Virus record (IMG/VR): IMGVR_UViG_3300008117_000025
Location: 32,001-96,000 of that record
Origin: a virus
Direction: 5' to 3' (one strand)
Length of the DNA: 64,000 nucleotides
Shown: piece by piece, positions 20,691-64,000 of the stretch
How the letters are laid out: each line of letters starts with the position of its first letter
Position numbering within the stretch: the stretch's first letter is position 1
Made by a program: the position numbers and the translations under genes
The notes under the pieces: model-generated
Told to the model about the DNA's origin: nothing
Seen by the model: only the letters and a program-made list of their open reading frames with translations
Databases searched by the model: none

Positions 20691-23600
20691 TTAATTACAT
20701 CCTTCAACACATCCTCTTGCATAGTTATCTTCTGCTTCACAGCAATCACCTGGTGTTTCTGATGTTGGAGTATATCCTACACAGAATGAACAATATATTG
20801 GGCATTCTTCAAGTGGGAGAGTAATACAGGTAGTACTGGTTCCTGAGAGTTTAACTGAAGTACCACTTGTACCTGAACTACCTGATGTACCAGATGAACC
20901 GGAGGTTCCTGAACTACCACTAGATCCACTTGTACCTGAACTACCTGATGAACCTGAAGTACCTGTAGAGCCTGATGTACCTGTTGAACCAGATGTTCCT
21001 GAACTACCACTTGATCCACTTGATCCTGTTGTACCTGATGAACCTGAAGTGCCAGTTGATCCGCTAGTACCTGATGAACCGCTAGTACCTGATGAACCCG
21101 ATGATCCACCAGAACCACTTGTACCTGCTGAGCCTGCAGATCCACTTGTACCTGTTGAGCCTGAGCTTCCTCCAGTACCTGAACTTCCTGAGCTACCATT
21201 TGCCCCACTTGTTCCTGAACTTCCTGATGTTCCGCTTGAGCCACTAGTACCAGAAGTACCACTTGAGCCTGAATTGCCAGAAGTACCTGATGATCCTCTT
21301 GTGCCGGAGGTTCCACTAGAACCTGAAGTTCCACTAGAGCCTGAAGTGCCGGATGTACCAGAACTACCATCAATTCCTGATGTACCAGATGAACCAGAGG
21401 TGCCATTAGAACCCGAAATGCCGGATGTTCCTGAACTACCATCAATCCCTGATGTTCCTGATGAGCCTGAACTACCTGATGTACCTGAACTACCTGATGT
21501 ACCAGATGAGCCAGATGTTCCAGAGCTACCATTTGTGCCTGAAATACCAGATGTACCTGAACTACCAGATGTACCAGATGAGCCAGATACGCCGGAAGTA
21601 CCAGCGTCTCCTGTTATACCACTAGTACCTGAGGTACCATTTGATGTGCCTGATGTACCTGTTGTGCCTGATGTACCAAATGAATATCCTGAAGACCCAG
21701 CAGTTCCTGAAGTACCAAATGATATACCGGATGTACCTGCTGAACCTGAAGAACCTGTTGTACCTGCTGTACCATTGCCTGAGGTTCCACTTGTACCAGT
21801 TTGACCACTTGTACCGCTTGATCCACGAGTACCACTAGTACCACTTGTACCACTAGTACCATTTGTTCCTGAAATACCTGAAGTACCGCTTGAGCCTGTT
21901 GTACCTGAAGTACCAGTTGTGCCTGAAGTGCCATTAGTACCATCTGCACCTGAGGTTCCAGAAGATCCATTAGTACCATTTATTCCTGAAGTACCATTAG
22001 TACCTGAAATACCAGAAGTACCATTTGAACCACTAACACCTGAAGAGCCAGAAGTACCAAAAGTACCATCAGAGCCAGAAGTGCCAGAAGAACCACTTGA
22101 ACCGTCAACTCCGGAAGAACCAGAACTACCTGATGTACCATGGGTTCCACTTGATCCTGAACTACCTGATGAGCCTGAAGAACCAGCTGACCCAGCTGAT
22201 CCAGCTGTTCCTGATGAGCCTGCAGAACCTGCAGAGCCAGCAGTACCTGCAGAGCCGGATGAACCACTTGATCCAGAGCTTCCTGAAGAACCACTAGAGC
22301 CAGCTTCACCACTTGTTCCTGAACTTCCATCTTCTCCGTCTACTCCTGATAATCCTGAAGAACCAGAACTACCACTAGTACCTGTCTCTCCACTAGTACC
22401 GGAACTTCCTTCAGTTCCTGATGTACCTGAAGTGCCATTTATTCCTGATGAACCTGAAGTGCCATTAGATGTACCTGAGGTACCTGTTGTGCCTGAAGTA
22501 CCGTATGTGTATCCAGAAGAACCAGCTGTGCCGGAGGTACCAAATGATAGACCTGAAGTGCCTGCTGAACCTGATGATCCTGTTTCTCCGCTTGTACCTG
22601 AAGTACCTGTTTCTCCGCTTGTACCTGAAGTACCTGTTTCTCCGCTTGTACCTGAAGTACCAGATGTGCCTGAGGTACCTGTTGTACCACTTGTACCTGC
22701 TGTACCACTTGTACCTGTTTCTCCACTAGTACCAGAGGAACCAGATGTACCAAAAGTACCTGATAAACCTGAAGTACCGCTTGATCCTGTTGTACCTGAA
22801 GTACCAGTTGTACCACTTGTACCTTGTGTTCCACTAGTGCCGCTAGTACCTGTTGTGCCTGATGTACCTGTTGTACCGCTTGTTCCAGCAGTTCCATTAC
22901 CTGAAGTGCCTGATGTACCAGCAGTTCCGTTACCTGAGGTACCACTTGTACCTGCAGTTCCATTACCTGAAGTACCTGAGGTACCTGATGAGCCTGAAGT
23001 ACCTGTTGTACCGCTTGTTCCAGCAGTTCCATTACCTGAAGTGCCTGATGTACCTGTTGTGCCTGATGTGCCTGTTGTGCCTGATGTACCTGTTGTGCCG
23101 CTTGAACCTGAAGTGCCTGATGTACCTGTTGTGCCTGATGTACCTGTTGTGCCTGAAGTGCCAGCAGTTCCGTTACCTGAGGTACCACTTGTACCTGCAG
23201 TTCCATTACCTGAAGTGCCAGAAGTACCTGTTGTACCTGAAGTACCGTTTGATGTACCTGATGTACCTGTTGTACCTGATGTACCGTATGTGTATCCTGA
23301 AGATCCTGCTGTACCCGACGTACCGAATGATATACCTGATGTACCTGCTGAACCTGAAGAACCTGTTGTGCCTGATGTACCACTGCCTGAAGTACCACTT
23401 GTACCTGTTTCTCCACTAGTACCACTTGATCCTCTAGTACCACTAGTACCGCTTGTACCTGCAGTTCCATTACCTGAAGTGCCTGATGAGCCTGATGAGC
23501 CTGTAGTACCAGAAGTACCTGAAGTACCTGTTGTACCGCTTGTGCCTGATGAGCCTGTAGTACCAGAAGTACCTGAAGTGCCTGTTGTACCTGTTGTGCC

Positions 23601-24815
23601 GCTTGTTCCTTGTGTTCCACTGATACCGCTTGTACCTGTTGTGCCTGAAGTACCAGTTGTACCACTTGTGCCTGATGTACCTGTTGTACCAGAAGTACCA
23701 GTTGTTCCTGAAGTACCTGTTGTGCCGCTTGTTCCCGTAGTACCGCTTGTTCCCGTAGTACCGCTAGTACCTGTTGTACCGCTTGTTCCCGTAGTACCGC
23801 TAGTGCCTGATGTGCCTGTTGTGCCTGAAGTGCCTGTTGTACCGCTCGTGCCTGAGGTACCTGTTGTACCGCTAGTACCTGTTGTACCTGATGTGCCGCT
23901 AGTACCTGTTATACCTGATGTACCTGTTGTGCCGCTTGTACCTGAAGTGCCTGATGTGCCACTTATACCGCTTGTTCCACGAGCACCACTAGTACCTGAT
24001 GTTCCTGTTGTACCTGATGTACCTGTTGTGCCACTTGTGCCGGTTGTACCTGATGTGCCTGTTGTGCCGCTTGAACCTGAGGTGCCGGATGTACCTGTTG
24101 TACCAGAAGTGCCTCTTGATCCACTTGAACCTGAACTTCCAGCAGATCCAGATATACCTGATGTGCCAGAAGAACCATCTGAACCTGAAGTACCGCTTGA
24201 GCCTGTTGTACCTGAAGTACCTGAGGTGCCGCTTGTACCAGTAGTACCAGAAGTGCCTGTTGTGCCTGAAGTACCTGTTGTGCCTGCTGTACCACTTGTA
24301 CCTGCTGTACCTGAAGTACCAGCAGCAGAGCGGGCATATTTTGTTAAAATATCAAGAATATTATATATATCAGCATCAGTGAGCCAACCACCTAATGATC
24401 CTAGTCTTGTTATATCTCCAGTAGGATCTATAAATATTCCTTTAACTTCAGCTGGGTAGTTTTCAACTCCTGTATATTCAGTAGCATTTGCTAGTATTTG
24501 AACATTAGTATCTTCTAAAACACAACAAACTTCAGTTTCAGTTTGAAGAGATATAGAAGCAACTCTATATATTTTCCCATATGCTAGATTCCCTCCTTCA
24601 GCATATAGCATTCCAACTTTCACATCACGTCCATCTATTTGACCATCTGTACTACCAGCTGCTTGGTCAGAATATATAGTAAAACAGCATTGAAAAAGAT
24701 ATGATGCTCCATCAAATATACTCCCAGGATCCGAAAACGTTGGGGTTGTTGGGGAACCAGAACCTGGTTTAAGTAGTGCTCTAATTACTAATGAAGAGTT
24801 AGCTGCAGTGGGCAT
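20691..24815 (-). CDS. collagen-like GTS/GTT/GSS repeat fibre protein (1374 aa)
   Basis: About 160-aa globular N-terminus, a continuous Gly-X-Y block at about 20845-24325, and a Cys-rich C-terminal tip. Confidence 0.85.
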   Translation of the reverse strand: MPTAANSSLVIRALLKPGSGSPTTPTFSDPGSIFDGASYLFQCCFTIYSDQAAGSTDGQIDGRDVKVGMLYAEGGNLAYGKIYRVASISLQTETEVCCVLEDTNVQILANATEYTGVENYPAEVKGIFIDPTGDITRLGSLGGWLTDADIYNILDILTKYARSAAGTSGTAGTSGTAGTTGTSGTTGTSGTTGTSGTSGTSGTTGSSGTSGSDGSSGTSGISGSAGSSGSSGSRGTSGTTGTSGTSGSSGTTGTSGTTGTSGTTGTSGTTGTSGTSGARGTSGISGTSGTSGTSGTTGTSGITGTSGTSGTTGTSGTTGTSGTSGTTGTSGTTGTSGTSGTTGTSGTTGTSGTTGTSGTTGTSGTTGTSGTTGTSGTTGTSGTSGTTGTSGTTGTSGISGTQGTSGTTGTTGTSGTSGTTGSSGTSGTTGTSGTSGTTGSSGSSGTSGNGTAGTSGTSGTRGSSGTSGETGTSGTSGSGTSGTTGSSGSAGTSGISFGTSGTAGSSGYTYGTSGTTGTSGTSNGTSGTTGTSGTSGNGTAGTSGTSGNGTAGTSGTTGTSGTTGTSGTSGSSGTTGTSGTTGTSGTTGTSGTSGNGTAGTSGTTGTSGSSGTSGTSGNGTAGTSGTSGNGTAGTSGTSGNGTAGTSGTTGTSGTTGTSGTSGTQGTSGTTGTSGTTGSSGTSGLSGTFGTSGSSGTSGETGTSGTAGTSGTTGTSGTSGTSGTSGETGTSGTSGETGTSGTSGETGSSGSAGTSGLSFGTSGTAGSSGYTYGTSGTTGTSGTSNGTSGSSGINGTSGTSGTEGSSGTSGETGTSGSSGSSGLSGVDGEDGSSGTSGEAGSSGSSGSSGSSGSSGSAGTAGSAGSAGSSGTAGSAGSAGSSGSSGSSGSSGTHGTSGSSGSSGVDGSSGSSGTSGSDGTFGTSGSSGVSGSNGTSGISGTNGTSGINGTNGSSGTSGADGTNGTSGTTGTSGTTGSSGTSGISGTNGTSGTSGTSGTRGSSGTSGQTGTSGTSGNGTAGTTGSSGSAGTSGISFGTSGTAGSSGYSFGTSGTTGTSGTSNGTSGTSGITGDAGTSGVSGSSGTSGSSGTSGISGTNGSSGTSGSSGTSGSSGTSGSSGSSGTSGIDGSSGTSGISGSNGTSGSSGTSGIDGSSGTSGTSGSSGTSGSSGTSGTRGSSGTSGNSGSSGTSGTSGSSGTSGSSGTSGANGSSGSSGTGGSSGSTGTSGSAGSAGTSGSGGSSGSSGTSGSSGTSGSTGTSGSSGTTGSSGSSGSSGTSGSTGTSGSTGTSGSSGSSGTSGSSGSSGTSGSSGTSGSSGTSGTSVKLSGTSTTCITLPLEECPIYCSFCVGYTPTSETPGDCCEAEDNYARGCVEGCN

Positions 24816-24823: not shown

Positions 24824-27800
24824 TTATATTAGGAAGATTATATAGGCTGTTGTTGTATTTGAAGTAACACTAGTTGCTGAACCAATTCCAGTGATAGTAA
24901 ACGTTGGGTAAGTTCCAGATGAATGATCTTGATTAACAGAAGCTAGTGCATTATTTGTAGTATACCCTGATGACATTGCTGTTCTTAGATTTACCTGGTT
25001 TGGAGATCCTGCTGTACCTATTGAAACAACAGAGCAATAATATATAGGAACTGAACGATTTGATATAGGTCTAGTAGCTGAAATTGATGTTGATGAAGCT
25101 ACACTAAATGACCATCCATTAGCTGTTAAGTCTTCTCCATTAGGACCAACAGCGCTAGCTATTGAATTTACAGCTCCTGCAACTATATTTAAAGTAACAA
25201 CATATTTTCCACCTGCAGATGATGTACCAGAAGTACCAGAAGAACCTGTTCCTCCAGTTTGGCCACTAGTTCCTGAAGTACCATTTGAAGTACCTGAGGT
25301 GCCTGTTGTACCGGAAGTACCATATGATAAACCTGATGAGCCTGCTGTACCTGAAGTACCGAATGATAGGCCTGAAGTACCAGATGAGCCAGTTTCTCCC
25401 GATGTTCCACTAGAGCCTGAGGTACCTGTTGATCCACTTGTTCCACTTGAACCACTTGAGCCATTAACACCACTTGTACCGCTTGAACCGGTTGTACCGC
25501 TTGATCCGCTTGTGCCTGTAGATCCACTAGTACCACTTGAACCGCTTGTTCCGTTTGAACCATTTTGACCAGATGTACCACTTGAACCAGTTGTACCGCT
25601 TGAGCCGCTTGTACCAGTAGAGCCACTTGTTCCACTTGAACCGCTAGTACCATTTGAACCACTTTGGCCAGATGTACCACTAGAGCCAGCTGTACCACTT
25701 GAGCCACTTGTGCCTGTAGAGCCTGATGTTCCGCTTGATCCACTTGATCCGCTTGTACCTGTAGAACCTGATGTGCCGCTTGAACCGCTTGATCCGCTTG
25801 TGCCACTTGATCCGTCTATACCTGAAGTACCACTTGAGCCTGAAGTACCACTAGAGCCTCTTGTGCCGCTTGAACCGCTTGAGCCACTAGTACCGCTTGA
25901 TCCACTAGTACCGCTTGATCCGCTTGTACCACTTGATCCACTTGATCCGCTTGATCCAGAAGTACCACTTGAACCACTTGATCCAGAAGTACCACTTGAA
26001 CCACTTGAACCATCTACTCCGCTAGTACCAGATGAGCCAGATGTACCAGTAGAGCCACTAGTGCCACTAGTTCCAGATGAACCTGAACTACCAGTTTCGC
26101 CACTAGTTCCTGAAGAACCCGAACTACCAGTTTCACCACTTGTACCAGATGAACCTGAAGTGCCAGTTGATCCACTAGTTCCTGAAGAACCCGAACTACC
26201 AGTTTCGCCGCTAGTTCCAGATGAACCATTTGTTCCATTTTCGCCACTTGTACCACTTGAACCACTTGATCCAGTTTCACCACTTGTACCTGATGAACCT
26301 CTTGTACCACTAGTTCCACTTGTACCTGATGAACCTCTTGTACCACTAGTTCCTGAAGAACCGGATGTACCTGAACTACCATCTACTCCACTTGTTCCTG
26401 AAGAGCCGTTTGTTCCTGAAACTCCAGAGGTGCCACTTGAACCTGAAGTACCGCTTGAGCCTGTTGTACCGCTAGTACCTGTTGTACCTGATGTACCGTT
26501 TGATGTACCTGAAGTACCTGTTGTACCTGAAGTACCGTATGAAAAGCCTGATGAACCTGCTGTACCTGATGTACCGAATGATATACCTGAGGTACCTGCG
26601 GAGCCGGATGAGCCGGTTGTTCCTGCTGTACCATCATTACCTGAAGTACCGCTTGAGCCAGTTACTCCACTTGTTCCTGATGAACCTCTTGTACCTGATG
26701 TACCTGAGGTGCCTGATGAGCCTGAAGTGCCGGATGAGCCTGAAGTACCAGATGAGCCGTTTGTTCCAGTTATACCACTTGTTCCAGATGAACCCCGTGT
26801 TCCACTTGAACCGGATGTACCAGATGAGCCTCTTGTACCGCTAGTTCCTGATGTACCAGATGAGCCTCTTGTACCGCTAGTTCCTGATGAACCGGATGTG
26901 CCACTTGAACCAGATGAACCACTAGTACCGGATGATCCTCTAGTACCGGATGAACCGCTTGTACCGGATGACCCTCTAGTACCGGATGTACCACTTGTAC
27001 CGCTTGAACCTGAAGTGCCAGCGCTACCACTAGTACCGGATGAACCTCTTGTACCACTAGTTCCTGATGAACCGGATGTGCCACTTGTTCCTGAAGTGCC
27101 AGATGTACCAACACTTCCGCTTGTTCCAGAAGAACCACTAGTTCCTGAAGAACCGGATGTGCCTGCACTTCCACTTGTACCTGAGCTGCCATTTGTACCT
27201 GATTCTCCAGAAGTACCAGATGATCCATTTGTCCCGGATATACCTGATGTGCCTGATGAGCCGTTGCTTCCAGATACACCTGATGTGCCTGAACTACCAC
27301 TTGTTCCTGAAGATCCGCTAGAACCTGATGTACCACTTGACCCTGAAGAGCCTGATGTACCTGATGAGCCACTAGAACCAGATGATCCTCTAGTGCCAGA
27401 TGAACCGGAAGAACCAGCTGAACCACTAGTACCAGAAGTACCAGCTGAGCCGGAAGTACCAGCGGTTCCAGATGAACCACTTGTGCCAGCAGACCCACTT
27501 GTTCCACTTGAACCTGATGTTCCTGAGGTGCCACCAGTGCCTGATGAACCTGAGGTGCCGCTTGAACCAGAAGAACCATTAGCACCAGAGGTGCCACTAG
27601 AGCCAGCAGTACCACTAGTACCAGAAGTATTAGTGGTAGTGGTTCTATAATATAATTGCTTAGACGTCGTATCGAATACAACGTAATTTGTTAATGCGTT
27701 TTCAGTTAGGGTTGCTTTTACACTTCCTGTAATGTCTACAGAACCTGTCATTTTAAATGACCCACTAACACTTAATAAGTTGCCAATTATAGCTGTGCTT

Positions 27801-28078
27801 CCAGATAGATAACTTGCACTAACTGCTGTTATTGCATTATTAGCCCAGCTTGAAGTACCATATAAAGAGCCAGTTAAATTATTAAGAACAGCACGACCAT
27901 CAACTGTAAAAAATCCAAGTACAGAGGTAGATCCAGTAATATTAATATTACTACCAGACATGTTAGTAAGAAGGTAGACAAAATTACCATCACCTTCAGG
28001 CCATGTTAACTCTGAGCCTTTTATGGCTATAGTGTTTCCCGCGTTGGCCGCAGAACTTATACGCAGTATTAATCCCAT
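24824..28078 (-). CDS. collagen-like GSS/GTS repeat fibre protein (1084 aa)
   Basis: N-terminus IKGSELTWPEGDGNFVYL, Gly-X-Y block at about 25215-27630, and a roughly 130-aa beta-rich C-terminal domain. Confidence 0.85.
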   Translation of the reverse strand: MGLILRISSAANAGNTIAIKGSELTWPEGDGNFVYLLTNMSGSNINITGSTSVLGFFTVDGRAVLNNLTGSLYGTSSWANNAITAVSASYLSGSTAIIGNLLSVSGSFKMTGSVDITGSVKATLTENALTNYVVFDTTSKQLYYRTTTTNTSGTSGTAGSSGTSGANGSSGSSGTSGSSGTGGTSGTSGSSGTSGSAGTSGSSGTAGTSGSAGTSGTSGSAGSSGSSGTRGSSGSSGSSGTSGSSGSSGTSGSSGSSGTSGSSGTSGVSGSNGSSGTSGISGTNGSSGTSGESGTNGSSGTSGSAGTSGSSGTSGSSGTSGSVGTSGTSGTSGTSGSSGTSGTRGSSGTSGSAGTSGSSGTSGTSGTRGSSGTSGSSGTRGSSGTSGSSGSSGTSGSSGTSGTRGSSGTSGTSGTRGSSGTSGSSGTRGSSGTSGITGTNGSSGTSGSSGTSGSSGTSGTSGTRGSSGTSGVTGSSGTSGNDGTAGTTGSSGSAGTSGISFGTSGTAGSSGFSYGTSGTTGTSGTSNGTSGTTGTSGTTGSSGTSGSSGTSGVSGTNGSSGTSGVDGSSGTSGSSGTSGTRGSSGTSGTSGTRGSSGTSGETGSSGSSGTSGENGTNGSSGTSGETGSSGSSGTSGSTGTSGSSGTSGETGSSGSSGTSGETGSSGSSGTSGTSGSTGTSGSSGTSGVDGSSGSSGTSGSSGSSGTSGSSGSSGSSGTSGSSGTSGSSGTSGSSGSSGTRGSSGTSGSSGTSGIDGSSGTSGSSGSSGTSGSTGTSGSSGSSGTSGSTGTSGSSGTAGSSGTSGQSGSNGTSGSSGTSGSTGTSGSSGTTGSSGTSGQNGSNGTSGSSGTSGSTGTSGSSGTTGSSGTSGVNGSSGSSGTSGSTGTSGSSGTSGETGSSGTSGLSFGTSGTAGSSGLSYGTSGTTGTSGTSNGTSGTSGQTGGTGSSGTSGTSSAGGKYVVTLNIVAGAVNSIASAVGPNGEDLTANGWSFSVASSTSISATRPISNRSVPIYYCSVVSIGTAGSPNQVNLRTAMSSGYTTNNALASVNQDHSSGTYPTFTITGIGSATSVTSNTTTAYIIFLI

Positions 28079-30020: not shown

Positions 30021-30021
30021 G

Positions 30022-31243: not shown

Positions 31244-31254
31244 AATCAAAAATT

Positions 31255-31284: not shown

Positions 31285-31294
31285 AGGGGTGAAA

Positions 31295-31531
31295 TTAGGC
31301 AGTAGCCAATTCACTAGTTTTGGTACGGCGACGGGCCAAATTGTACATCGCATTAGCAAGGGTGTCATTTACACGACGATCACCACTTTTAACGTAGTTT
31401 ACAAAACGTGTAGTGTAACCTGTTTCTTCTGCGAGACGAGTGGTGTCTCCTTGGCGTTGACGAGCTTTGTAGAAGGCCAACTTTGCTGTTCTGTTCATGT
31501 AATTTGCACGAACGTTTGTTTGATAACTCAT
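31295..31531 (-). CDS. small basic helix-turn-helix protein
   Basis: 78 aa, R/K-rich. DTTRLAEETGYTTRFVNYVKSGDRRV fits an XRE-like HTH. Confidence 0.6.
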   Translation of the reverse strand: MSYQTNVRANYMNRTAKLAFYKARQRQGDTTRLAEETGYTTRFVNYVKSGDRRVNDTLANAMYNLARRRTKTSELATA

Positions 31532-31546
31532 ATAACTGATTATTGA

Positions 31547-53594: not shown

Positions 53595-54083
53595 TTAGAA
53601 GTTGAGTACACAGTAATCCATAGCGATTGTTAAGGATAAAGTAATTGCAGCATCACCCTGGCTCCAGTCATATTCTCCGAAAGTAGCTGTTTTGCAATAA
53701 GCACCTTTGATAATCCACTCACCTACTACATCACCTACTGGGCCTAGAATGTCTAGTGTTAAATCTTTCTTATAAAAGTCGGAATATCCATCACGGCCTG
53801 TTACTGATTCGTGTGCTAAACGAGCCCACTCCATTACTGCTTGTGCGCCTGATGGGGTTACGGGATCGTATAATTCTAAAGTCATATCATTCCATTCAAC
53901 TTTACCTTTTACTTTACGGTAAACGTTGATGTGATCGAGTTTAATCATATTGGCTTCAAATCCAGGAGCTGATGCCTTTTTAATTAAATATGATGGAATA
54001 CCATCAATGTACATTATGAACCTATTGGGAACTTTTGGTTCAAAAGCGGTGAACATTATTTCGTTAGCGTCTAATACTGCCAT
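53595..54083 (-). CDS. tail tube protein (gp19-like)
   Basis: FEPKVPNRF, KVKGKVEWNDMTLELYD, VMEW, YKKDLTLDILGPVG..VGEWIIKGAY. Follows the sheath gene. Confidence 0.92.
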   Translation of the reverse strand: MAVLDANEIMFTAFEPKVPNRFIMYIDGIPSYLIKKASAPGFEANMIKLDHINVYRKVKGKVEWNDMTLELYDPVTPSGAQAVMEWARLAHESVTGRDGYSDFYKKDLTLDILGPVGDVVGEWIIKGAYCKTATFGEYDWSQGDAAITLSLTIAMDYCVLNF

Positions 54084-54123
54084 TTTATTTTAATTTTTTA
54101 TTGCTATCAATAAATATTAGCAA

Positions 54124-54150
54124 CTACATCCCCTTATGCAGGGAATGTAG
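54124..54150 (-). other. 11-bp hairpin over the sheath stop codon
   Basis: Minus strand reads CTACATTCCCT-GCATA-AGGGGATGTAG, with one G-U pair and no strong U-tract. Confidence 0.5.
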
Positions 54151-55843
54151 CGCCGGTTGGTTGTACGTTAAAGTTCAAGATAATGAATTCAGCAGTCTTA
54201 GTTGGTTGGATGTAGATCTGGCCTACTAATTGGTTGCGATCAATTACATCAGGTGTATTATTGGAATCATCCATTACTACCTTGTAAGCATATAAACCTT
54301 GACGTTGTACTACTGATTCAAGGTATGGATTAACTTGAGATAAAAAGCGATTGCGAGTAACGTTAGTGTTTTGTTCAAATACTAAATTATTACCTACTTG
54401 ACCAATATAGTCTTTTAATGCAATCAACAAACGACGAACGTTTACACGGTCAAGAGCTGTTTGTTTTTTCTGCAATGTTTTCTGACCAAATACTACAACC
54501 CCTTCTCCAGGGAATGTAGCTAATGGGTTAACATTTGCTTCATATAATGTATCGCGATCGCTTTGAGATAATTTTCTTTCAGCACGTAATACTGAAGGAA
54601 CACCACCACGATTTAAACCGGCAGGTGCAAACCATTCAGCACCAACTTGGTCGTTGAATGCAAATACACCACCCATTACTGTTGGAGCGGGAGCCCATAC
54701 TGCTTTACCTAAACCTGAGCTGAATAATTGAACCCAGGGATAGTAAGTAGCTGCGTAGTTGCTTGGTTGGCCAGCAGCAGCATTAGCAGCAGCTGAAATT
54801 GAAGTACCATAAACACCGGTTCCTACAATTGCAATTGCATCACCACGTCCTTCAGCTGTTGAGATTAATTGTGAAGCAGCGCTACAATCTAAACCAACAC
54901 CAGGAGCAAGCAATACATTAAATTGGTATTCATCCTTATTAGTTAAAATACCAAAAGCAGTAACATAATCAGCCGGAGCAAATCCTTGAATATTAGTTGT
55001 AGTAATATTTTCGTTCATAAGTTGAACAGTAGCTGTTGCTGCAACAGCACCCCCAAATGAACCACTTCCTAGAGCTGGTAGGCTACCACTGTATTGGGTT
55101 GCTTTAAAATTACCGTTATTGTCAATAGAATCTACTTGTGGTTTAGATATAGATTTAACACGAATGTATTGAGAAGCATTTGCGTAAGAACCAACGTAAT
55201 TGATGATATTGTTTGTAGCATCATATACTGGTTTTGAATCGCCTATTACACGAGAAATGTAGTTAGGTAACATTGGATCTAATGATAAGTTAGCCCAAGT
55301 TTCTAGATAATTCCTTTGAGCATTATTATCATTACCAGCACGAACTGCTAAAGTAAAGGTACCGCTTCCAGTATTTACATTTGTAACTTCCCAACGAACA
55401 TTCATTGCACTACCACTAGGTAAGGCACCACCAACTTCAGTACCACCAGCACTGTTCATTTGATTGCCCCAAGCTAATGTTTCAAGTACAAATGAATTAT
55501 CAATAGAATCATCATCAATATCAGCTACTGAAGAACTTGCATAAGTACTAAGATTAGCACTGCCACTAATAATTCTGGTAACTAATAATGTCTGACCGCC
55601 ATTTTGGAAGAAATCCTTAGCGGCTAAAGAAGTTAAATATTCATAGTAGTAACTACCACTTTTGAATGTTTCTCCGAATTTGGATACATATTCACTATAA
55701 GAAGTAACATAGGTAGGAACAAATGGTTGACCCATTACGGTTGGACCAACAACAGCGGTTGCTGCACCTACGATACCTCTTTGAACCAATGATTGATCTG
55801 ATTCATTTTGGAATACGCCAGGAGATAAGATTTTTTCTGCCAT
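54134..55843 (-). CDS. contractile tail sheath protein (gp18-like)
   Basis: MAEKILSPGVF, VGPTVMG, WFAPAGLNRG, YEANVNPLATFPGEG.VVFGQKTL, LDRVNVRRLLI, VGQIYIQPTKTAEFI. Confidence 0.95.
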   Translation of the reverse strand: MAEKILSPGVFQNESDQSLVQRGIVGAATAVVGPTVMGQPFVPTYVTSYSEYVSKFGETFKSGSYYYEYLTSLAAKDFFQNGGQTLLVTRIISGSANLSTYASSSVADIDDDSIDNSFVLETLAWGNQMNSAGGTEVGGALPSGSAMNVRWEVTNVNTGSGTFTLAVRAGNDNNAQRNYLETWANLSLDPMLPNYISRVIGDSKPVYDATNNIINYVGSYANASQYIRVKSISKPQVDSIDNNGNFKATQYSGSLPALGSGSFGGAVAATATVQLMNENITTTNIQGFAPADYVTAFGILTNKDEYQFNVLLAPGVGLDCSAASQLISTAEGRGDAIAIVGTGVYGTSISAAANAAAGQPSNYAATYYPWVQLFSSGLGKAVWAPAPTVMGGVFAFNDQVGAEWFAPAGLNRGGVPSVLRAERKLSQSDRDTLYEANVNPLATFPGEGVVVFGQKTLQKKQTALDRVNVRRLLIALKDYIGQVGNNLVFEQNTNVTRNRFLSQVNPYLESVVQRQGLYAYKVVMDDSNNTPDVIDRNQLVGQIYIQPTKTAEFIILNFNVQPTGATFPA

Positions 55844-56991: not shown

Positions 56992-57023
56992 TAAATATAT
57001 AATAAGATTATGAGACAACCAAA
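56992..57023 (-). promoter_or_regulatory. TTTG-N20-TATATTTA promoter, also containing ATATTTAT
   Basis: Both motif classes coincide about 22 nt upstream of the ATG at 56969. Confidence 0.55.
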
Positions 57024-59104
57024 ATTTTCTCTAAGGTTTTTATTACTCTATCTGAAGATATTTCTTTAGAACATTCAAATTGGTGTTGTGTTCCTTTATG
57101 TACGGGGCACCAATTCCAATCACCTGCATCTAGCCTATGTGAGTTGAAACAACCCCTACATTTACCTAAAGGTGCATCAATGTGGTAACAACTAGTAGGT
57201 TCAGTATATTCTTCAGTAAAGCCAGATACTATTATTGTAGGTGTATCTGTAGCCCATGATAGCCAACTTAATCCACTGCTAATTCCTATAAATGCTTCAG
57301 ATTCATTAAGTACTTTTACAGTTGATTCCATATCAAATGAGTCAGGATACTTAATTCCAGTTGGGTTTTTATTTCCCATATATCCGTTTTCTTCTCTAGA
57401 TAACATTACTACTTCATATCCTTGATCTTTACACCAATCAACTACTTCTTGCCACCCTGTTGGATTATTCCAATATTTAGCTTGTGCTGTACTGTGAACA
57501 GCAATAGCAATTTGTTTTTTCTTTGCAACTAATGGCTTTTTTAATTTTGGTTTTACTTCTATAAAATCTAATCCTAGAATATCAGATGCTGTTTTCTGAA
57601 GGTTTTGTTGTTTAATGTCAAAAGGATTTTTATTAAAGTCAACATTATCATCACTATTGTAAAACCACCCTATAACATACATTGCGTATAAATTGTAAAC
57701 TGTATCTCCCGGTTTAACAAATTCAATTTCTGGGTATTGTGATTGGAAGAAATAATTATGAAATGTAGAGCAAATAACTTTACATTTGTGTTTTTTTCTA
57801 AATTCTTCAACATATGGAAACCAAGCTAAAGTATCACCCAATGATTTAGAATCTAAAGCAATATATACTCTTTTATCTTTAAGATCTAAATCATGTTGAT
57901 ATAATAAATTACCATTCTCATCTTCAATCTTTATTCTCCAATCTATATAATATTGTTTACTTGTTCTAACCCAACAATTACTTTCTATTTCTTGAGAATA
58001 TTCTACTGTGTTTGTTTTTTTATTAATAAAGCTTACTTTATGTTTTTTATAAGGTGAGTCTAACACTTCAGCAAAAGGACCATTAATAAAATTAATATTA
58101 AATTTAGGAATGTTTACTTTTGAAGGTATTCCTAGTTTTTTTGTTGATTTATAAATAGATATTAATTGATCTTTCATATTTATTTTATTGTCTTCATATT
58201 TTTTTAATAAATCTTTTGTTCTATTTTTCCAAGATAAATCTAATGCCTGTTGTCTTGCCCTAGATGAATATAATGTATGTGAATTAAATTTAATTTTATT
58301 AAAAGCATCAACAATTTCATCTACATCTCGATTTACAGCTATCATTCCCTTTAGTAAGTTATTATCCTCAAAAGTTCCAATAACAGGTAAGCCAGAAGCT
58401 AACGCTTCTAATAATGTTAAATTAGGATGTCCAGCCTCTAATATAGAAGCATGGATAAATACACTATGTTCTTTGTATATATTTTTTAATTGTTCTTCAT
58501 TAAGATCATATAAAATAGTTAATTTATCATAATCTGAAGGGAAGGTATCAAAATAGTTTTTATTATTACTTGGTCCGGCTATTGTAATAGGTAAATCTAG
58601 TTGTTTTGCTGCTTCAATAGCATATCCAAATCCTTTTCTGTCTTCGGCTTGATTATGAATAAATCCATTATTTGCTACACATAATAATTTGTGTTCTTTA
58701 AATTCTCCCGGAGTAAAATAGTCTGTATTTACTCCATGTGAAAAATATTCAGGTATTCCTTCAAAGTAATCAACTAAAAATTTAGCAGGCACAAAGGCTT
58801 TTTTAGCATTCTTGATTGCTTGTAAATTTTCTTTATAGGCAGTAGAATCTTTTCCATATAAAAAGGCATGATGGTCATGCATAGTAAAATAATATGGTAT
58901 TCCACGTTCATGTGCTAAATTAGCTAAATTAGCAACATGAATATGTACTACATCATAATCTTTTACATCATCTAAATATAATATTTGTGAATCATGTCCT
59001 AATTCTAATAGGGCATTGTGTGTCTCCCATATAATTTTTTCTACGGCTCCCCATCCATTTGGGGGAATAGGAATTAAACCAGGCGTAACATTAATTATTT
59101 TCAT
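57008..59104 (-). CDS. fusion of a GT4 glycosyltransferase and a TibC/AAH-like (BAHT) protein O-heptosyltransferase
   Basis: N-half: GWGAVEKII...EAGHPNLTLLEALASGLP (GT4). C-half: SKSLGDTLAWFPYVEEF (catalytic Asp motif of TibC/AAH), STAQAKYW, FIGISSGLSWLSW and CRGC...CP...FEC (four Fe-binding Cys). Confidence 0.85.
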   Translation of the reverse strand: MKIINVTPGLIPIPPNGWGAVEKIIWETHNALLELGHDSQILYLDDVKDYDVVHIHVANLANLAHERGIPYYFTMHDHHAFLYGKDSTAYKENLQAIKNAKKAFVPAKFLVDYFEGIPEYFSHGVNTDYFTPGEFKEHKLLCVANNGFIHNQAEDRKGFGYAIEAAKQLDLPITIAGPSNNKNYFDTFPSDYDKLTILYDLNEEQLKNIYKEHSVFIHASILEAGHPNLTLLEALASGLPVIGTFEDNNLLKGMIAVNRDVDEIVDAFNKIKFNSHTLYSSRARQQALDLSWKNRTKDLLKKYEDNKINMKDQLISIYKSTKKLGIPSKVNIPKFNINFINGPFAEVLDSPYKKHKVSFINKKTNTVEYSQEIESNCWVRTSKQYYIDWRIKIEDENGNLLYQHDLDLKDKRVYIALDSKSLGDTLAWFPYVEEFRKKHKCKVICSTFHNYFFQSQYPEIEFVKPGDTVYNLYAMYVIGWFYNSDDNVDFNKNPFDIKQQNLQKTASDILGLDFIEVKPKLKKPLVAKKKQIAIAVHSTAQAKYWNNPTGWQEVVDWCKDQGYEVVMLSREENGYMGNKNPTGIKYPDSFDMESTVKVLNESEAFIGISSGLSWLSWATDTPTIIVSGFTEEYTEPTSCYHIDAPLGKCRGCFNSHRLDAGDWNWCPVHKGTQHQFECSKEISSDRVIKTLEKILVVS

Positions 59105-60201
59105 TTTATTATATTAATAATTGATTGATAAGCTGCAAAATAATAACATTGATAATATTGAGGTATTCTAGATAATAATATATTAGTATATGGATTTTCG
59201 GCTTGGTTCCAAATTACAAGTTGGCATTTTTTTATGTTGTATTGCCTATCAGTATTTAAAAAATAATCTAGATCAGATTCATCTCTTAATACACAAACTA
59301 ATGCATCCTCATCTCCATCTATTTTATTTATATTTAATTCATGATCAAAAAATAATTCTTTAAGTAATGAATATTTTTTAAAATCTAATTGTCTATCTAA
59401 GTAAACTATTTTTTGTTGAGTATTTACATTATTTAAATGATGATCCATTAAACATAAAGATTCTTTATGAATAGGTTCAAAATATCTATTAAATGTATCT
59501 ATATCTTTATTAATACGCCTATTATTAACTTTTTTTATTAATTCACTACCTTCATCTACAGATTCATTTGCATAGAAGGTATGAGATATAGAATTTTCTC
59601 TATAGTTATAATAATATAAGTTTCTAGGGAGATGAAGTATTTTACCTTGTTCCTCTAAAGTACACAATATAGCTAAATCATTATAATAATATTTCATCCA
59701 ACCATTTGGATTAAAATCATAATCTATATTTGGGTTATTTCTCCATGCTCTTAAATAAGTTAAATAACCACAAGTCATATTTTTTTGGTCTGTAAAATCG
59801 GGATTGTGAAAATTCATCCAGTTTCCATCTTCTCTAAATGCGTTTCCAGCACCAGCAATTGCTATTGTATCTGGAAATTTGGTGAAGAAGTGATGGTATA
59901 CTTCTAATGCTTTAGGTAGAGGATAATCATCTTGATCTGCTTGTATTATTATTTCTGCTTCTTTGCAAAAATTTTGTGGGTTATAAAACATTTCTTTTTT
60001 GAAAGATTGTTCTACATACTTTACCTTTCTATCCCTACTAGAAATATATGATAAAATTTCTTTAGCATCTTCCGCATCAGATGAAAAATCGTCAGTAACT
60101 ATCCATTCCCAATTTGTATATGTTTGGGATTTTATTTTCTCATATAGTCTAGAAATAAAATGAGAACCATTATAAAAACTAGTAATTATAGTAAATTTCA
60201 T
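59101..60201 (-). CDS. GT2-family (GT-A) glycosyltransferase
   Basis: FTIITSFYN, WEWIVTDDFSSD, QADQDD (DxD) and NDLAIL...YYYNYRENSIS. Confidence 0.85.
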   Translation of the reverse strand: MKFTIITSFYNGSHFISRLYEKIKSQTYTNWEWIVTDDFSSDAEDAKEILSYISSRDRKVKYVEQSFKKEMFYNPQNFCKEAEIIIQADQDDYPLPKALEVYHHFFTKFPDTIAIAGAGNAFREDGNWMNFHNPDFTDQKNMTCGYLTYLRAWRNNPNIDYDFNPNGWMKYYYNDLAILCTLEEQGKILHLPRNLYYYNYRENSISHTFYANESVDEGSELIKKVNNRRINKDIDTFNRYFEPIHKESLCLMDHHLNNVNTQQKIVYLDRQLDFKKYSLLKELFFDHELNINKIDGDEDALVCVLRDESDLDYFLNTDRQYNIKKCQLVIWNQAENPYTNILLSRIPQYYQCYYFAAYQSIINIIK

Positions 60202-60202: not shown

Positions 60203-61186
60203 TTATTTAAATTCTACAAAGCTATTGCTATTAATTATTTGATCTTTTGTATATGTTATAACAGTATTTCCTAATCTTATAGTAAGATGGTTATTTGATT
60301 GTAAATGAGAAGGGAGTGGATTGGATTCATATTGACTTAGTAAATTTATAGTATCAATAAATTCATCATTTATATATAAATCTGCATATTGATTTTCATG
60401 AACAATATCAATACTATTCATATAAAAATAAGCAAAATCTGATGTGTTTTTTATTTTTAATAATTTAATATCAAGCTGATTGTTATCATCTTTAAGTCTG
60501 TTAATGTTTATTTTACTATTGGTAAAATAGTCATAGACTTGAGTTCCTTGTATTAATAGAGCATTATCTAAATAATTGTTTTGTTTTAAATTACAATAAA
60601 AGAAATTCTCTAATACTCCAAAACTTCCGATTTGACCACATAAATTTTGATAATCACCTACTGTTTTACATATAGGAAAAACCTTATTGAAAAAATCTAC
60701 TTTAGTGTAGAAAAATATTGTTTGTATACAATTATCAATTAAAAAGAAAAATGCTTCTTTATTGTTTTTTATTGTTTCTAATTTGGTATTTTTTAGTTGT
60801 TCTATGTCTTCTTTAGAAAATATAGAATCCCCTTCTACATAATAAAATCCATCATAATAATCTTTAATAAACGAAACTGCGCTCATCATAGATTTATATA
60901 TAGCGTATGAGTGATGATTATGGCCATTTTCACCATAATGATATTCTAAATAAAATTTAGGAGTATGAACGTAAAAATAAACATTTTCATTTATAAAAAA
61001 CTCATTTCTAATATCGTAAATATAATAATTTACTAATGATTGTATTTCTATATCTGCAGGATAATGAGTTACAAGTAATATATCAAAATGTTGATTTAAA
61101 CTTAATATTGTATCTTTTAATATTTGTTTTCTACTATCAGTAGAAGGATATCCACCTATAACAACAAGATCTCTATTATTTGACAT
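60203..61186 (-). CDS. uncharacterised protein, possibly GT-A-like; paralog of 61190..62269
   Basis: 327 aa. LVVIG...ILLVTH, YIYDIRN, YVEGDSIF and LENFFY resemble GT-A elements. Confidence 0.5.
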   Translation of the reverse strand: MSNNRDLVVIGGYPSTDSRKQILKDTILSLNQHFDILLVTHYPADIEIQSLVNYYIYDIRNEFFINENVYFYVHTPKFYLEYHYGENGHNHHSYAIYKSMMSAVSFIKDYYDGFYYVEGDSIFSKEDIEQLKNTKLETIKNNKEAFFFLIDNCIQTIFFYTKVDFFNKVFPICKTVGDYQNLCGQIGSFGVLENFFYCNLKQNNYLDNALLIQGTQVYDYFTNSKININRLKDDNNQLDIKLLKIKNTSDFAYFYMNSIDIVHENQYADLYINDEFIDTINLLSQYESNPLPSHLQSNNHLTIRLGNTVITYTKDQIINSNSFVEFK

Positions 61187-61189: not shown

Positions 61190-62269
61190 TTAATTTAAAA
61201 CAAGTATGTTATTTATTAAATGTATATTATCTTTATTAATAATTACAGATCTAGTTTGATGATCATTCATAGTAATTTGTACTTCTACATTTTCTTCTGT
61301 TAAATCAAACGTTTCTACATAATTATCATTACTACTATATAAGTTATGTTCTATAATTTGTGGTTCTTGATTATTTCTTAGTATTTTAACAATAGATTTA
61401 TTATTATTTTCTGAACTACAATTCCATGTTATTATAGCAAATTTAGTATTGTCTGTAGGGGTATATTGTGGATCAACTCCTTCAACCGTATATCCTACTC
61501 TATGAATAGATGATATAAATCCATCTATTATCAGATCAGATTCTGAGGGGGATATAAGGGTATTCCAGGAAGAATCAGGGAAATCATCAAATATTATATT
61601 TGCTTGTTTATTTACTACATTATCAAACCCTCCTTCTGAGGATCTAACTATATTAAGAACAAACTCTTCAGCAATCATGAAATTTTCATCACTATTGAAA
61701 TTTCGTTTTGCTATAATATAATCATCTTCATTGTTTATTTTGGGGAAAATTTCAGTAAAATAATCTAAAGCAAAATACCAGAATTGGAAACAAATATATT
61801 TGTTTTGGTTTATATAGATGTATCCCTTTTTATTTTGTTCTTGGGTTTCAGCTATAATATTTTTAACATTTTCTATACTAGGAACTGTACAGTCATATTC
61901 TATTCTAAAAAAATGGGTATAACCTAAAGATAAGGCTAAATTAGTAGAATGATATAAATTAGACAAAACAGACAAACCATGTTTTTGAAATGCTTTAATT
62001 GCTATTGAAAAATATTTGTGGTTATCTCTATACCACATAGCAATAGTTTCTACATCTGAATAGTCTTTTTTAAATAGTCTGTTATTGTGATCGTATAGAA
62101 GATAATCTACTTCATCAATTAATGCTTGTTCAAATTTACTGTTTGTCACCAACATTATGGGGAGACCAGTTTTTTTAATAGAAGATAAATAATTTTTAAA
62201 AGTTCTTACACAATTGTCATTGTGAAAAAAAGCATCTACTATTATAATAGGTTTTATTTCTGGAGGCAT
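61190..62269 (-). CDS. uncharacterised protein, possibly GT-A-like; paralog of 60203..61186
   Basis: 359 aa. IIIVDA...IMLVTN, YLLYDHNN, RIEYDCT and AEEFV. Confidence 0.5.
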   Translation of the reverse strand: MPPEIKPIIIVDAFFHNDNCVRTFKNYLSSIKKTGLPIMLVTNSKFEQALIDEVDYLLYDHNNRLFKKDYSDVETIAMWYRDNHKYFSIAIKAFQKHGLSVLSNLYHSTNLALSLGYTHFFRIEYDCTVPSIENVKNIIAETQEQNKKGYIYINQNKYICFQFWYFALDYFTEIFPKINNEDDYIIAKRNFNSDENFMIAEEFVLNIVRSSEGGFDNVVNKQANIIFDDFPDSSWNTLISPSESDLIIDGFISSIHRVGYTVEGVDPQYTPTDNTKFAIITWNCSSENNNKSIVKILRNNQEPQIIEHNLYSSNDNYVETFDLTEENVEVQITMNDHQTRSVIINKDNIHLINNILVLN

Positions 62270-62273: not shown

Positions 62274-64000
62274 TTAGTTTATTCTTTTTAGGTATCCGTC
62301 TGGGTTGAAAGTAGAATTGGTTCCAAAATAATCACACCAATGTCTGTCTATAACAAAATCAGAATTTGTTTGCAAAAATTCATTAATAGCTTTACGAGGC
62401 CCTCCATTGTAAGTATCAGAAAGACCAGTAAAATCAATCACTCCATCTTCAACAATAAAGTAAGAATCTTTAGATACAATTTTACTAAATTTATTTAGGG
62501 ATTTTAATACATCTTCATAAGTGTGAGATCCATCATCTATAACTAGTATTTTTTCAAACCCTTTAGTATTTTTTTCTATATCATATTCTTCAAAACCACC
62601 ATAGAAAAACTTAATTTGACTATGATTAAATACTTTTTGATCGTGTATTTCATTATAGAGATTAATTGTATGAACTTCTCCTTTTCCTAATAAATACAAC
62701 AAATCAGCATAATATAAAGCTCCCCCACCCATATAGGTTCCGATTTCTATGATTAGGTCTGGTTTAATAGACATAATTAGCATTTGGTAGAGAGCATAAT
62801 CCATAGGGCATTTTAAATAGGGAACCTCCTTATATTGTACTGCAAAATGTCCACTATATATGTCTTGTAAATTTATATTAGATTCATGTACTAGGAAATT
62901 TTTATTCACATCTGGGTAAGCAGAGGTTATTACTTGGCTTTGCTTTGTAGTTACTTCTACTTTCCAGTCATGGCTTCTTTCTCCATAGGCACCATTGGGG
63001 GTAATTCTATAAACTCCTCCTACCCATTTATCATTTCTTCCTTTTCCTTTTTCTAAAAGTATAGTATTTAATGCCCAGTAAGCATCAAAAACATCTTCAT
63101 GGAAAAACCAATCAGGGAATTCCATGTCTTTAATAAGATTATTTCTAAACATAAAACCAAAAGAAATATAATTGGCTTTCATGTTATCTCTTAAGATTAC
63201 CTCTCCTTTTATACCCCAATAATAACTACTCATGAAATTATCATCACCAGGATTTTTTATATAATATCCAACACTGTAAACAGAATATTCTTTATTATTC
63301 TTTAAAAAGTTTATCTGTTTTTGTAATTTACTTTTATCGACATAGTAATCATCACCATCTAGAATAGTAACATATTCAGAACTAATTTTCTTTAAAAGAT
63401 CATAGGTCCTACGAATGACAGCTCCTTGATTTTTTTCATTTCTGTGTAGGATTACATTTGGAATATCTTTATATTTTTGTATGATATTCCAAGTATTATC
63501 TGTAGAGCAATCATCAGATATTAAGATATTGAAGTTAAATAATGTTTGTTGCATTAAAACACTATCAATACATTGTTCAATATATTCTTCATGATTGTAT
63601 GTAGGAATAAGTACAGTTAGTAACTTTTCCTCAGGAGATTTTTTAGCAAAAATAGTTCCAATAGGAGAAGATTTATATGCTTCTTCTATAATACTGTTGT
63701 TGTTTTCAGTATTTTGATCCCTAATTTGATCAACATCAAATCCCTTTTTAACTAAGGTTTGAATTAATTTTTCTACTCTTTCACCTTCATTATCATGAAA
63801 TTCTATAAGAAGATTATCTATTTTTTCAAAAATTTCATCTTCAAGATTTTCTATAATATCATATTCAGCCCCTTCAATATCCATCTTTAATAATGATAAT
63901 CTTTCAATATTATTTTGATCAAAGAATGTTTTTAAAGACACAGCAGGTACAGTTATTTGTTTTACCTCACTACCATTATTTTTAATATGATCTTCAGATA
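62274..64000 (-). CDS. multidomain FkbM-type methyltransferase + GT2 + CmcI-like O-methyltransferase, 5' end beyond the window
   Basis: The frame is open to the window edge (SEDHIKNNGSEVKQITVPAV-SLK), so the GTG at 63941 is internal. LLKMDIEGAEY...IEFH (FkbM), VLIPTYNH...DDCSTD...LDGDDY (GT2), LKCPMD...IIEIGT..GG...IDDGSH...YFIVED (CmcI). Confidence 0.85.
   Translation of the reverse strand, partial: SEDHIKNNGSEVKQITVPAVSLKTFFDQNNIERLSLLKMDIEGAEYDIIENLEDEIFEKIDNLLIEFHDNEGERVEKLIQTLVKKGFDVDQIRDQNTENNNSIIEEAYKSSPIGTIFAKKSPEEKLLTVLIPTYNHEEYIEQCIDSVLMQQTLFNFNILISDDCSTDNTWNIIQKYKDIPNVILHRNEKNQGAVIRRTYDLLKKISSEYVTILDGDDYYVDKSKLQKQINFLKNNKEYSVYSVGYYIKNPGDDNFMSSYYWGIKGEVILRDNMKANYISFGFMFRNNLIKDMEFPDWFFHEDVFDAYWALNTILLEKGKGRNDKWVGGVYRITPNGAYGERSHDWKVEVTTKQSQVITSAYPDVNKNFLVHESNINLQDIYSGHFAVQYKEVPYLKCPMDYALYQMLIMSIKPDLIIEIGTYMGGGALYYADLLYLLGKGEVHTINLYNEIHDQKVFNHSQIKFFYGGFEEYDIEKNTKGFEKILVIDDGSHTYEDVLKSLNKFSKIVSKDSYFIVEDGVIDFTGLSDTYNGGPRKAINEFLQTNSDFVIDRHWCDYFGTNSTFNPDGYLKRIN

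Follow-up and report, generated by a model that had tools for sequence, protein, structure and literature searches.

The locus examined here raises the question of which molecule is modified by a glycosyltransferase that a virus encodes close to its tail genes. It lies at 57008-59104 of a window of 64,000 nucleotides, which comprises bases 32001-96000 of the 182,846-bp IMG/VR record IMGVR_UViG_3300008117_000025, a complete virus with direct terminal repeats and a G+C content of 33.6%. Since genes for a tail sheath, a T4 gp19-type tube and a baseplate hub are present (Pfam/PHROG), the virus was classed as a myovirus. As an earlier note on this DNA had observed, 57008-59104 is one open reading frame (ORF) of 698 amino acids (aa); as a correction, the gene is on the minus strand, like every large gene of the window, and the plus strand there is full of stops. 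Based on comparative genomics, which supplies all the evidence for this reading, we suggest with a probability of roughly 65% that the ORF, an enzyme of the BAHT family, to which TibC and AAH belong, glycosylates the phage's own Ser/Thr-rich collagen-like fibres. The gene and its two domains are listed below, where GT4 denotes glycosyltransferase family 4 and other families are numbered likewise.

57008..59104, minus strand: two-domain glycosyltransferase of 698 aa, GT4 plus BAHT/TibC-like (ORF, Pfam Glycos_transf_1 and GT9, TIGR04414, AlphaFold model)
58190..59104, minus strand: N-terminal GT4 domain (GT-B, retaining-type), aa 1-305 (PF00534 7.7e-8, PF13692, phrog_33732, fold matches)
57008..58105, minus strand: BAHT (TibC/AAH) domain, aa 334-698, with beta-barrel, GT-B core, thumb and Cys4 iron finger (TibC 4rap, Foldseek, predicted local distance difference test (pLDDT) ~90)

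Searches were judged by the Pfam gathering thresholds and the curated TIGR04414 cut-off of 200 bits. The search against a BAHT hidden Markov model (HMM) and the comparison of a predicted structure with TibC, both proposed in the earlier note, came out in favour of the BAHT family. The C-terminal half scored 292.9 bits against TIGR04414, with aa 351-694 aligned on model positions 25-374 of 374, and the gene scored 294.8 bits when the phage's own genome was scanned with this model. A phmmer comparison with TibC (4RAP) gave 1.8e-59 across aa 351-693. The AlphaFold model of the 698-aa protein, for which an alignment with 18 phage homologues was used as input, has a mean pLDDT of 76.5 and reaches ~90 across aa 334-698, of which aa 334-417 form the strand-rich region of the beta-barrel part; the first ~130 aa, the N-lobe of GT4, were modelled poorly and with low confidence. 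When the PDB was searched with Foldseek, the top matches were all TibC chains (E 8e-30), with template modelling (TM) scores of 0.83-0.85 on TibC length. The N-terminal half is above the gathering thresholds for a GT4 domain (PF00534, 32.5 bits, cut-off 26.4; PF13692, 32.8 bits, cut-off 27), belongs to the glycosyltransferase group phrog_33732, and its fold matches are retaining GT4 enzymes, namely methylmannose-polysaccharide mannosyltransferase, PimA, MshA and WaaG. By HMM, fold and catalytic residues, the C-terminal half is a true member of the TibC/AAH (BAHT) family.

It has been reported that in TibC the catalytic base is Asp110, the beta-phosphate is bound by Thr226 and Lys230 and the heptose O4 by Trp305, Cys339, 342, 358 and 370 are the iron ligands, and Phe265 and Val266 form the thumb tip (PMC4358343). 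The equivalents in the window enzyme are D424 (in LGD), T539, K543 and W614, and the four Cys align with C649, C652, C666 and C678. The LGDTLAWFPY motif and the four Cys (CRGC, WCP, FEC) pointed out in the earlier note are found at aa 422-431 and at these four positions. The thumb carries Y575/M576 in place of Phe265/Val266, keeps GYMGN and is 3 residues shorter than that of TibC. When 84 phage homologues and three reference enzymes of bacteria (one of Paraburkholderia, and two encoded beside AIDA-I or another autotransporter in E. coli and Salmonella) were aligned, the Asp, Lys, Trp and all four Cys were conserved in 84/84 and the Thr in 83/84.

One binding residue behaves differently. In TibC, Arg286 hydrogen-bonds the adenine N1, a contact described as 'incompatible with a guanine', and the R286A variant is inactive (PMC4358343). 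This position is Thr595 in the window enzyme, and among the 84 phage homologues it is Val in 64, Thr in 10, Ala in 3, Leu in 2, Ile in 1 and Arg in 4. Arg286 is thus replaced in 80/84 phage enzymes, while it is kept in 3/3 bacterial references and in nearly all Lentisphaeria, Negativicutes and Gammaproteobacteria BAHT loci. The alignment of the region is well anchored (bacterial 'LQERV' versus phage 'MESTV', 'IEAAI' and 'LELVM'). As judged from these alignments, the catalytic machinery is intact and the base-reading residue has changed in most phage enzymes. Since Arg286 is a ligand-specificity residue, its loss lowers the claim that ADP-heptose is used but not the assignment to the fold family.

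No match to GmhA/SIS_2, PfkB kinase or NTP_transferase was found in the whole phage genome, so that a supply of ADP-heptose by the phage itself was rejected, and GmhA was absent from 19/20 large BAHT-positive phage genomes. The single CTP_transf_like match of the phage lies inside an unrelated 1358-aa polyprotein. A 'cytidylyltransferase-like' gene of Microcystis phage Mel-JY01 was considered as an ADP-heptose synthase and not used, as its PF01467 match is marginal and comes without the kinase domain. The caution in the earlier note that the donor sugar may differ is borne out by the missing heptose-pathway genes and by the change at Arg286. Based on these two observations, ADP-heptose is probably not the sugar donor in the first step. 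The phage encodes genes of the GDP-fucose type (Gmd, an Fcl-like enzyme and GT11) and so has GDP-sugars of its own making, for which reason we would guess, with low confidence, at a GDP-linked donor. ADP-heptose could also be supplied by the host.

The candidate acceptors are three collagen-like fibres of the same window, encoded together with a glycine-rich protein.

13144..19179, minus strand: fibre 1, 2011 aa, with four blocks of collagen-like Gly-Ser/Thr sequence (1302 aa in sum) and, at the C-terminus, a Peptidase_S74 chaperone (Collagen 1.3e-174, PF13884 1.5e-17)
19448..20650, minus strand: 400-aa glycine-rich-domain protein amid the fibres (phrog_863, 'tail fiber assembly', 5.5e-13; Gly_rich_2 1e-14)
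20691..24815, minus strand: fibre 2, 1374 aa, of which 1116 are Gly-Thr/Ser repeats, with a C-terminus rich in Cys (translation, composition, Pfam)
24824..28078, minus strand: fibre 3, 1084 aa, 795 aa of Gly-Ser/Thr repeats (translation, composition, Pfam)

The estimate in the earlier note of about 3,200 residues of Ser/Thr-rich fibre agrees with the count, as the three fibres contain 1302 + 1116 + 795 = 3213 Gly-X-Y residues, with Ser or Thr at 83-90% of the X and 81-85% of the Y positions. The Pfam Collagen family (PF01391) matches the three fibres with E values of 1e-103 to 1e-174, and uninterrupted Gly-X-Y runs reach 390 residues. Two further fibres of this kind lie beyond the window and bring the genome total to 3939 Gly-X-Y residues. 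The S74 chaperone at the end of fibre 1 is a typical feature of phage fibres that trimerise. Fibre 2 has no S74 chaperone and ends in a Cys-rich tail with ~12 Cys in its last 60 residues, which may form a disulfide knot that serves trimerisation or attachment.

Relatives of the BAHT domain were found on at least 395 IMG/VR contigs and in 4 of 50,697 deposited phage genomes. The viral proteins consist of the domain alone (~385 aa), of GT4 fusions (693-780 aa) or of other fusions (910 and 1097 aa), and their gene contexts are diverse, because the window's neighbour genes are common to just 4-11 of the best 80 BAHT loci. The co-occurrence with GSS/GTS fibre genes that the earlier note had proposed to look for was found in both directions. 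When BAHT-positive IMG/VR records were scanned for the DNA pattern of (G[ST][ST])6, with the reversed pattern as a control, the pattern was present in 25 of 44 records (10/13 of those of at least 80 kb) and the control gave 0 matches. Several of the records without the pattern have the BAHT gene at the end of the contig, a place where an assembly would break off if repeats followed. A Gly-X-Y ORF was present no more than 10 kb from the BAHT gene in 26 of the best 80 loci, in some of them adjoining it, and 20 of the 26 are more than 70% Ser/Thr. When viral contigs were chosen by the (G[ST][ST])8 pattern only, as an arbitrary sample, BAHT was found in 18 of the 43 records searched, above the cut-off in 17. 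Near-complete records with at least two pattern matches contained BAHT in 6/7 cases, and complete records with one short match in 0/5, three of these five being proviruses.

The two genes are also linked in position. No more than 4 kb separates the BAHT gene from a Ser/Thr Gly-X-Y fibre gene in 5/6 near-complete genomes spanning 66-548 kb; the linked genomes measure 66 (with inverted terminal repeats), 69, 249, 299 and 548 kb, and differ in gene order and orientation. Both BAHT and Ser/Thr repeat genes are present in LR756501 (735 kb). In the cultured Microcystis phage Mel-JY01 (PP395634.1), a fibre gene is located 1.7 kb upstream of a 1226-aa GT4...BAHT gene. This fibre, the plus-strand ORF 2-3052, is a Ser/Thr-rich Gly-X-Y protein that exceeds 1000 aa and has a non-repeat C-terminal domain. 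It was missed by the strict (G[ST][ST])6 pattern owing to GTR, GTD and GTG interruptions and was caught by a general Gly-X-Y pattern and translation, so that the pattern counts understate the co-occurrence. GenBank gives antisense 'hypothetical' ORFs with PEVP repeats at this place (1-651 and 739-2298, minus strand), which are probably a mis-annotation.

Gly-Ser/Thr repeats accompany BAHT genes in some bacteria as well. Adjacent ORFs with such repeats were found in 7/7 gammaproteobacterial BAHT loci, including one from a complete Arenicellales chromosome. Two loci were inspected, that of this chromosome (OZ244198.1, L348:11178-12589) and one in a gammaproteobacterial metagenome-assembled genome (L344:11267-11890); in both, BAHT is stand-alone and keeps Arg286, and the adjacent ORFs are small lipoproteins ending in (GSS/GTS)n and poly-Asp tails, possibly a bacterial non-autotransporter substrate class of the family. 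Lentisphaeria and Negativicutes BAHT loci, which keep Arg286, had no Gly-Ser/Thr repeat neighbours.

The close relatives of the phage allow a comparison of gain and loss. Among 42 records whose sheath is at least 70% identical, only 3, the nearest relatives, have BAHT, and repeats were present in 3/3; in the 21 largest BAHT-negative relatives (21-119 kb, ~1.07 Mb in total) repeats were present in 0/21. Two BAHT-negative relatives, G088 and G093, keep the small genes beside the sheath gene and lack the glycosyltransferase island upstream of it, and the G088 homologues of fibres 1 and 5 (40-46% identity; 46% for fibre 5) contain no Gly-X-Y run. From this comparison, the Ser/Thr collagen-like segments and the glycosyltransferase island come and go together.

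Here, we need to consider several points that weigh against glycosylation of the fibres. First, the acceptors known for the BAHT family are autotransporter passengers folded as beta-helices, which differ from collagen-like repeats (PMC4358343). Second, the donor argument depends on one residue, read off a 3.9 Å ligand complex. Third, the nearest fibre gene is 29 kb away from the BAHT gene of the window. Fourth, at face value the close clade contains repeats in 4/4 members with BAHT versus 0/21 without it, but the four positive members may represent a single gain, and the co-occurrence counts as a whole ignore shared ancestry; as most records are fragments, absences are weak evidence. Finally, there are exceptions on both sides. 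G060 (148 kb, 84% complete) has repeats and BAHT was not found in it, and in the 170-kb relative G046 the collagen-like gene near BAHT (1120 aa, L313:16348-19707) has just 3% Ser/Thr in X and Y, the Ser/Thr repeats being located elsewhere in the genome. In LR756504 (636 kb) BAHT is present and no collagen-like DNA was found. Of the BAHT-positive phage genomes tested, LR756504 alone lacks collagen-like DNA and LR756504 alone has a GmhA-like gene (102 bits); the BAHT of this genome may have retained a heptose-type function towards some other acceptor.

Some of these points fit an explanation in which BAHT modifies another protein, either a virion protein (sheath, tube, capsid or a 1732-aa beta-propeller protein) or a host surface protein, and travels with Ser/Thr fibres by way of common mobile structural or accessory modules. 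Known acceptors are beta-helices, and phage fibres and spikes have beta-rich domains; LR756504 has BAHT without collagen-like repeats; the BAHT gene adjoins the sheath gene both here and in G046; and mycobacteriophages glycosylate capsid and tail-tube subunits, according to work cited in PMC12619734. We consider this explanation unlikely, as the association with Ser/Thr repeats recurs in varied gene orders in genomes of 66 to 735 kb and again with unrelated bacterial lipoproteins, in which the (GSS/GTS)n tail is the sole common feature, and as BAHT-negative relatives keep sheath, tube and fibre scaffolds without the repeats. Based on these observations, we suggest that the fibre repeats are the acceptor of the phage enzyme, which would work like TibC but probably differ from it in both acceptor and donor. 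More tentatively, at somewhat less than even chances, we propose that (Gly-Ser/Thr-Ser/Thr)n repeats are a second widespread acceptor class of the BAHT family, carried by fibres of phages of 66-735 kb and by lipoprotein tails, that the donor has changed in most phage enzymes, and that dense O-glycans replace hydroxyproline and charge pairs in the nearly proline-free helix and form a mucin-like coat on the fibres.

The surroundings of the BAHT gene bear on the same question. The following features belong to its block, to the adjoining tail genes and to the end of a separate sugar cluster.

53595..54083, minus strand: tail tube (Pfam and PHROG)
54134..55843, minus strand: tail sheath (Pfam and PHROG)
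59101..60201, minus strand: GT2 glycosyltransferase, 366 aa, with a 4-nt ATGA overlap with the BAHT gene (PF00535 3.2e-12)
60203..61186, minus strand: 327-aa protein of a virus-only family, likely a glycosylation accessory or glycosyltransferase-like module, as a lead (Atlas structure search)
61190..62269, minus strand: 359-aa protein, distantly paralogous to that of 327 aa (24% identity, E 6e-8)
62274..64000, on to 65603, minus strand: 1109-aa GT4-FkbM methyltransferase-GT2-CmcI/rhamnosyl-O-methyltransferase, C-terminal 575 aa in the window (Pfam; whole gene L223:274-3603)
2-1069 (cut by the window edge) and 1071-2531, minus strand: two GT4 genes closing a deoxysugar cluster (phrog_2170, PF00534)

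The block of GT4, GT2 and methyltransferase genes next to tail genes described in the earlier note is seen by Pfam and PHROG, and all of its genes are tightly packed on the minus strand. The BAHT gene does not head it, as had been stated, and is instead its last member in the direction of transcription, in which the order is the 1109-aa GT4-FkbM-GT2-CmcI gene, the 359-aa gene, the 327-aa gene, GT2, GT4-BAHT, four small ORFs, sheath and tube. The BAHT gene is 1.2 kb upstream of the sheath gene, and tube and sheath (53595..55843) place the glycosyltransferase island in the structural module. The 327-aa and 359-aa proteins had no Pfam, PHROG or PDB sequence match; in the Atlas structure search their fold recurs fused to viral Aah/TibC-type, GT2, GT4 and FkbM proteins, matches that serve as leads only. 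The deoxysugar cluster occupies 22-33 kb of the genome, upstream of window base 1 (L228:6127-17069), and encodes Gmd (397 bits), the Fcl-like enzyme, RfbH (449 bits, above the cut-off; 3,6-dideoxyhexose pathway), a dTDP-glucose-4,6-dehydratase-like enzyme, a fragment of a thiamine pyrophosphate enzyme, GT4s, and the fucosyltransferases GT11 (98 bits) and a GT10-like protein.

Beyond the window, further upstream of the BAHT gene, lie five 2-oxoglutarate (2OG)-Fe(II) oxygenases, the 1732-aa beta-propeller protein and the two further Ser/Thr collagen-like fibres. The five oxygenase genes, three of PF13759 and two of PF13640 (a prolyl-4-hydroxylase-like family), are in tandem at window coordinates 66765-69875 (L223:4765-7875), between the island and this second fibre cluster. 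They might hydroxylate sugars or the fibres, among which fibre 1 contains the stretches GAPGSS and GSPGSP. A phage GroEL chaperonin at 5869-7479 of the window (phrog_5725, E 7e-151) might aid the folding of the very large fibre or enzyme proteins.

The composition of this gene set would also fit an auxiliary metabolic or surface-remodelling module that makes or changes a host polysaccharide (lipopolysaccharide (LPS), capsule or O-antigen) in the course of infection, with the BAHT-like domain recruited to a non-protein acceptor. GT2, GT4, GT11, Gmd, Fcl and RfbH are typical of O-antigen and capsule loci, the GT2 gene carries the PHROG label 'GtrB-like O-antigen conversion', and the BAHT fold is related to GT9 LPS heptosyltransferases. 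However, the C-terminal half scores 293 bits on the protein-heptosyltransferase model versus 30 on that of LPS heptosyltransferase I, and it has retained the parts that TibC uses for oligomerisation and protein-substrate binding, namely beta-barrel, thumb and iron finger (PMC4358343). In addition, the annotated parts showed no flippase, polymerase or lipid-carrier transferase, and the link to the fibres would be left unexplained. We therefore ranked this explanation low, as quite improbable. Far more improbable still is a hypermodification of phage DNA by the glycosyltransferases. Phage glycosyltransferases often glucosylate DNA (PMC12619734), and this phage carries GTP cyclohydrolase, QueE-like and QueC-like genes at 29234-32446 of the window, which suggest a 7-deazaguanine modification of its DNA. 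However, no BAHT-family enzyme is known to act on DNA, the deoxysugar, fucosyl- and sugar-O-methyltransferase genes do not match known DNA glycans, and the association with fibres would again have no explanation.

If the fibres are the acceptor, the 698-aa protein would be a bifunctional cytoplasmic protein glycosyltransferase, and we infer the following order of steps. The BAHT domain would transfer the first sugar onto Ser/Thr hydroxyls of the (Gly-Ser/Thr-Ser/Thr)n repeats in the cytoplasm, on nascent or untrimerised chains, before or during trimerisation. AAH and TibC act on their substrates prior to export, and animal collagen chains cannot be modified once the triple helix has formed. 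The latter has been described previously (PMC8968730). The glycan would then be extended by the fused GT4, the GT2s, the two modules of 327 and 359 aa and the fucosyltransferases, while the separate cluster (Gmd, Fcl-like enzyme, RfbH, 4,6-dehydratase, GT11, GT10-like protein and two GT4s) would supply and add deoxysugars, and the FkbM and CmcI domains would cap it with O-methyl groups. The proposal of the earlier note that the phage glycosylates and methylates its own fibres is supported by co-occurrence as far as a probable glycosylation is concerned; since FkbM and CmcI/rhamnosyl-O-methyltransferase are of sugar-methylating types, methylation would fall on the glycan and not on the fibre protein. 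The end product would be mucin-like, densely O-glycosylated, proline-poor collagen-like fibres. Glycosylated Thr stabilises the collagen helix without hydroxyproline in worm cuticle collagen and in model peptides, and for BclA a stabilisation of the collagen-like helix by glycans has been proposed; this proposal is found in PMC8968730.

To our knowledge, the BAHT family has been known solely as a modifier of virulence adhesins of enterobacteria, and our full-text literature searches returned no paper linking BAHT enzymes, phages and collagen-like fibres. The glycosylation of Ser/Thr fibres by a BAHT enzyme would therefore probably be an undescribed kind of virion glycosylation. If it is true, hundreds of environmental phages, megaphages included, would build heavily O-glycosylated collagen-like fibres, and the substrate range of the BAHT family, and probably its donor range, would be wider. 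It would also suggest how a collagen-like helix can be stable when it contains hardly any proline, and would bear on phage adsorption, on masking from recognition by hosts or grazers, and on sticking to mucus and particles. The enzyme and its repeat would make a compact pair for glycosylated collagen-like materials, and as the gene pair is also present in the cultured phage Mel-JY01, the idea is directly testable there.

When the system is compared with characterised ones, TibC/AAH (TIGR04414; PDB 4RAP and 4RB4; PMC4358343) is the closest. The phage enzyme has the same layout of beta-barrel, GT-B, thumb and Cys4 iron finger, the same catalytic Asp, beta-phosphate Thr/Lys and sugar-O4 Trp, and presumably the same role as a cytoplasmic O-glycosyltransferase acting on many Ser/Thr of a long, repetitive, fibrous surface protein. 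In contrast, it is encoded by a phage, fused to GT4, has Thr for Arg286 and a shorter thumb, and its proposed acceptor is a collagen-like Gly-Ser/Thr repeat instead of a beta-helix. The characterised TibC is a ring-shaped dodecamer, and the fused GT4 domain might alter such a ring assembly of the BAHT part. In the E. coli and Salmonella reference loci an autotransporter gene is immediately downstream of BAHT, while no autotransporter acceptor gene of the AIDA-I/TibA type was found beside the phage BAHT gene, whose recurring partner is the Gly-Ser/Thr collagen-like fibre. Judged by its sequence, the phage domain thus departs from characterised BAHTs in two features, the adenine-reading Arg and the autotransporter partner.

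Among phages, the glycosylation of mycobacteriophage virions was the only case found in our literature searches (Freeman et al. 2023, PMC10527164, as cited in PMC12619734). According to that source, phage-encoded glycosyltransferases decorate the phage's own structural proteins there as well, but they do so at the C-termini of capsid and tail-tube subunits and belong to families other than BAHT; the target proposed here is kilobase-long collagen-like fibres, so that both enzyme family and scale differ. BclA-type spore glycoproteins of Bacillus and Clostridioides are also O-glycosylated, Thr-rich Gly-X-Y filaments. Their sugars are of deoxy and O-methylated types (rhamnose, 2-O-methyl anthrose), the filaments make up a hairy nap on the spore surface, and the glycosylation is thought to aid hydration and stability (PMC8968730, PMC6222408). 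They differ in having Pro-rich repeats (GPT) and enzymes that bear no relation to BAHT, and in belonging to a bacterial spore and not to a virion. Mimivirus likewise encodes collagen-like proteins together with a modifying hydroxylase/glycosyltransferase (as cited in PMC8968730), and its fibrils are heavily glycosylated with virus-made sugars (giant-virus glycans: PMC9614988). It is, however, a giant virus of eukaryotes, its sugar is on hydroxylysine and not on Ser/Thr, and the account cited in PMC8968730 involves no BAHT enzyme. Finally, collagen-like phage tail fibres with an S74 chaperone (PF01391 and PF13884) have exactly the layout of fibre 1. The collagen-like segments of such phage fibres are usually short and of mixed composition, whereas those described here extend over 3,200-3,900 residues that are almost purely Gly, Ser and Thr, with little Pro or charge.

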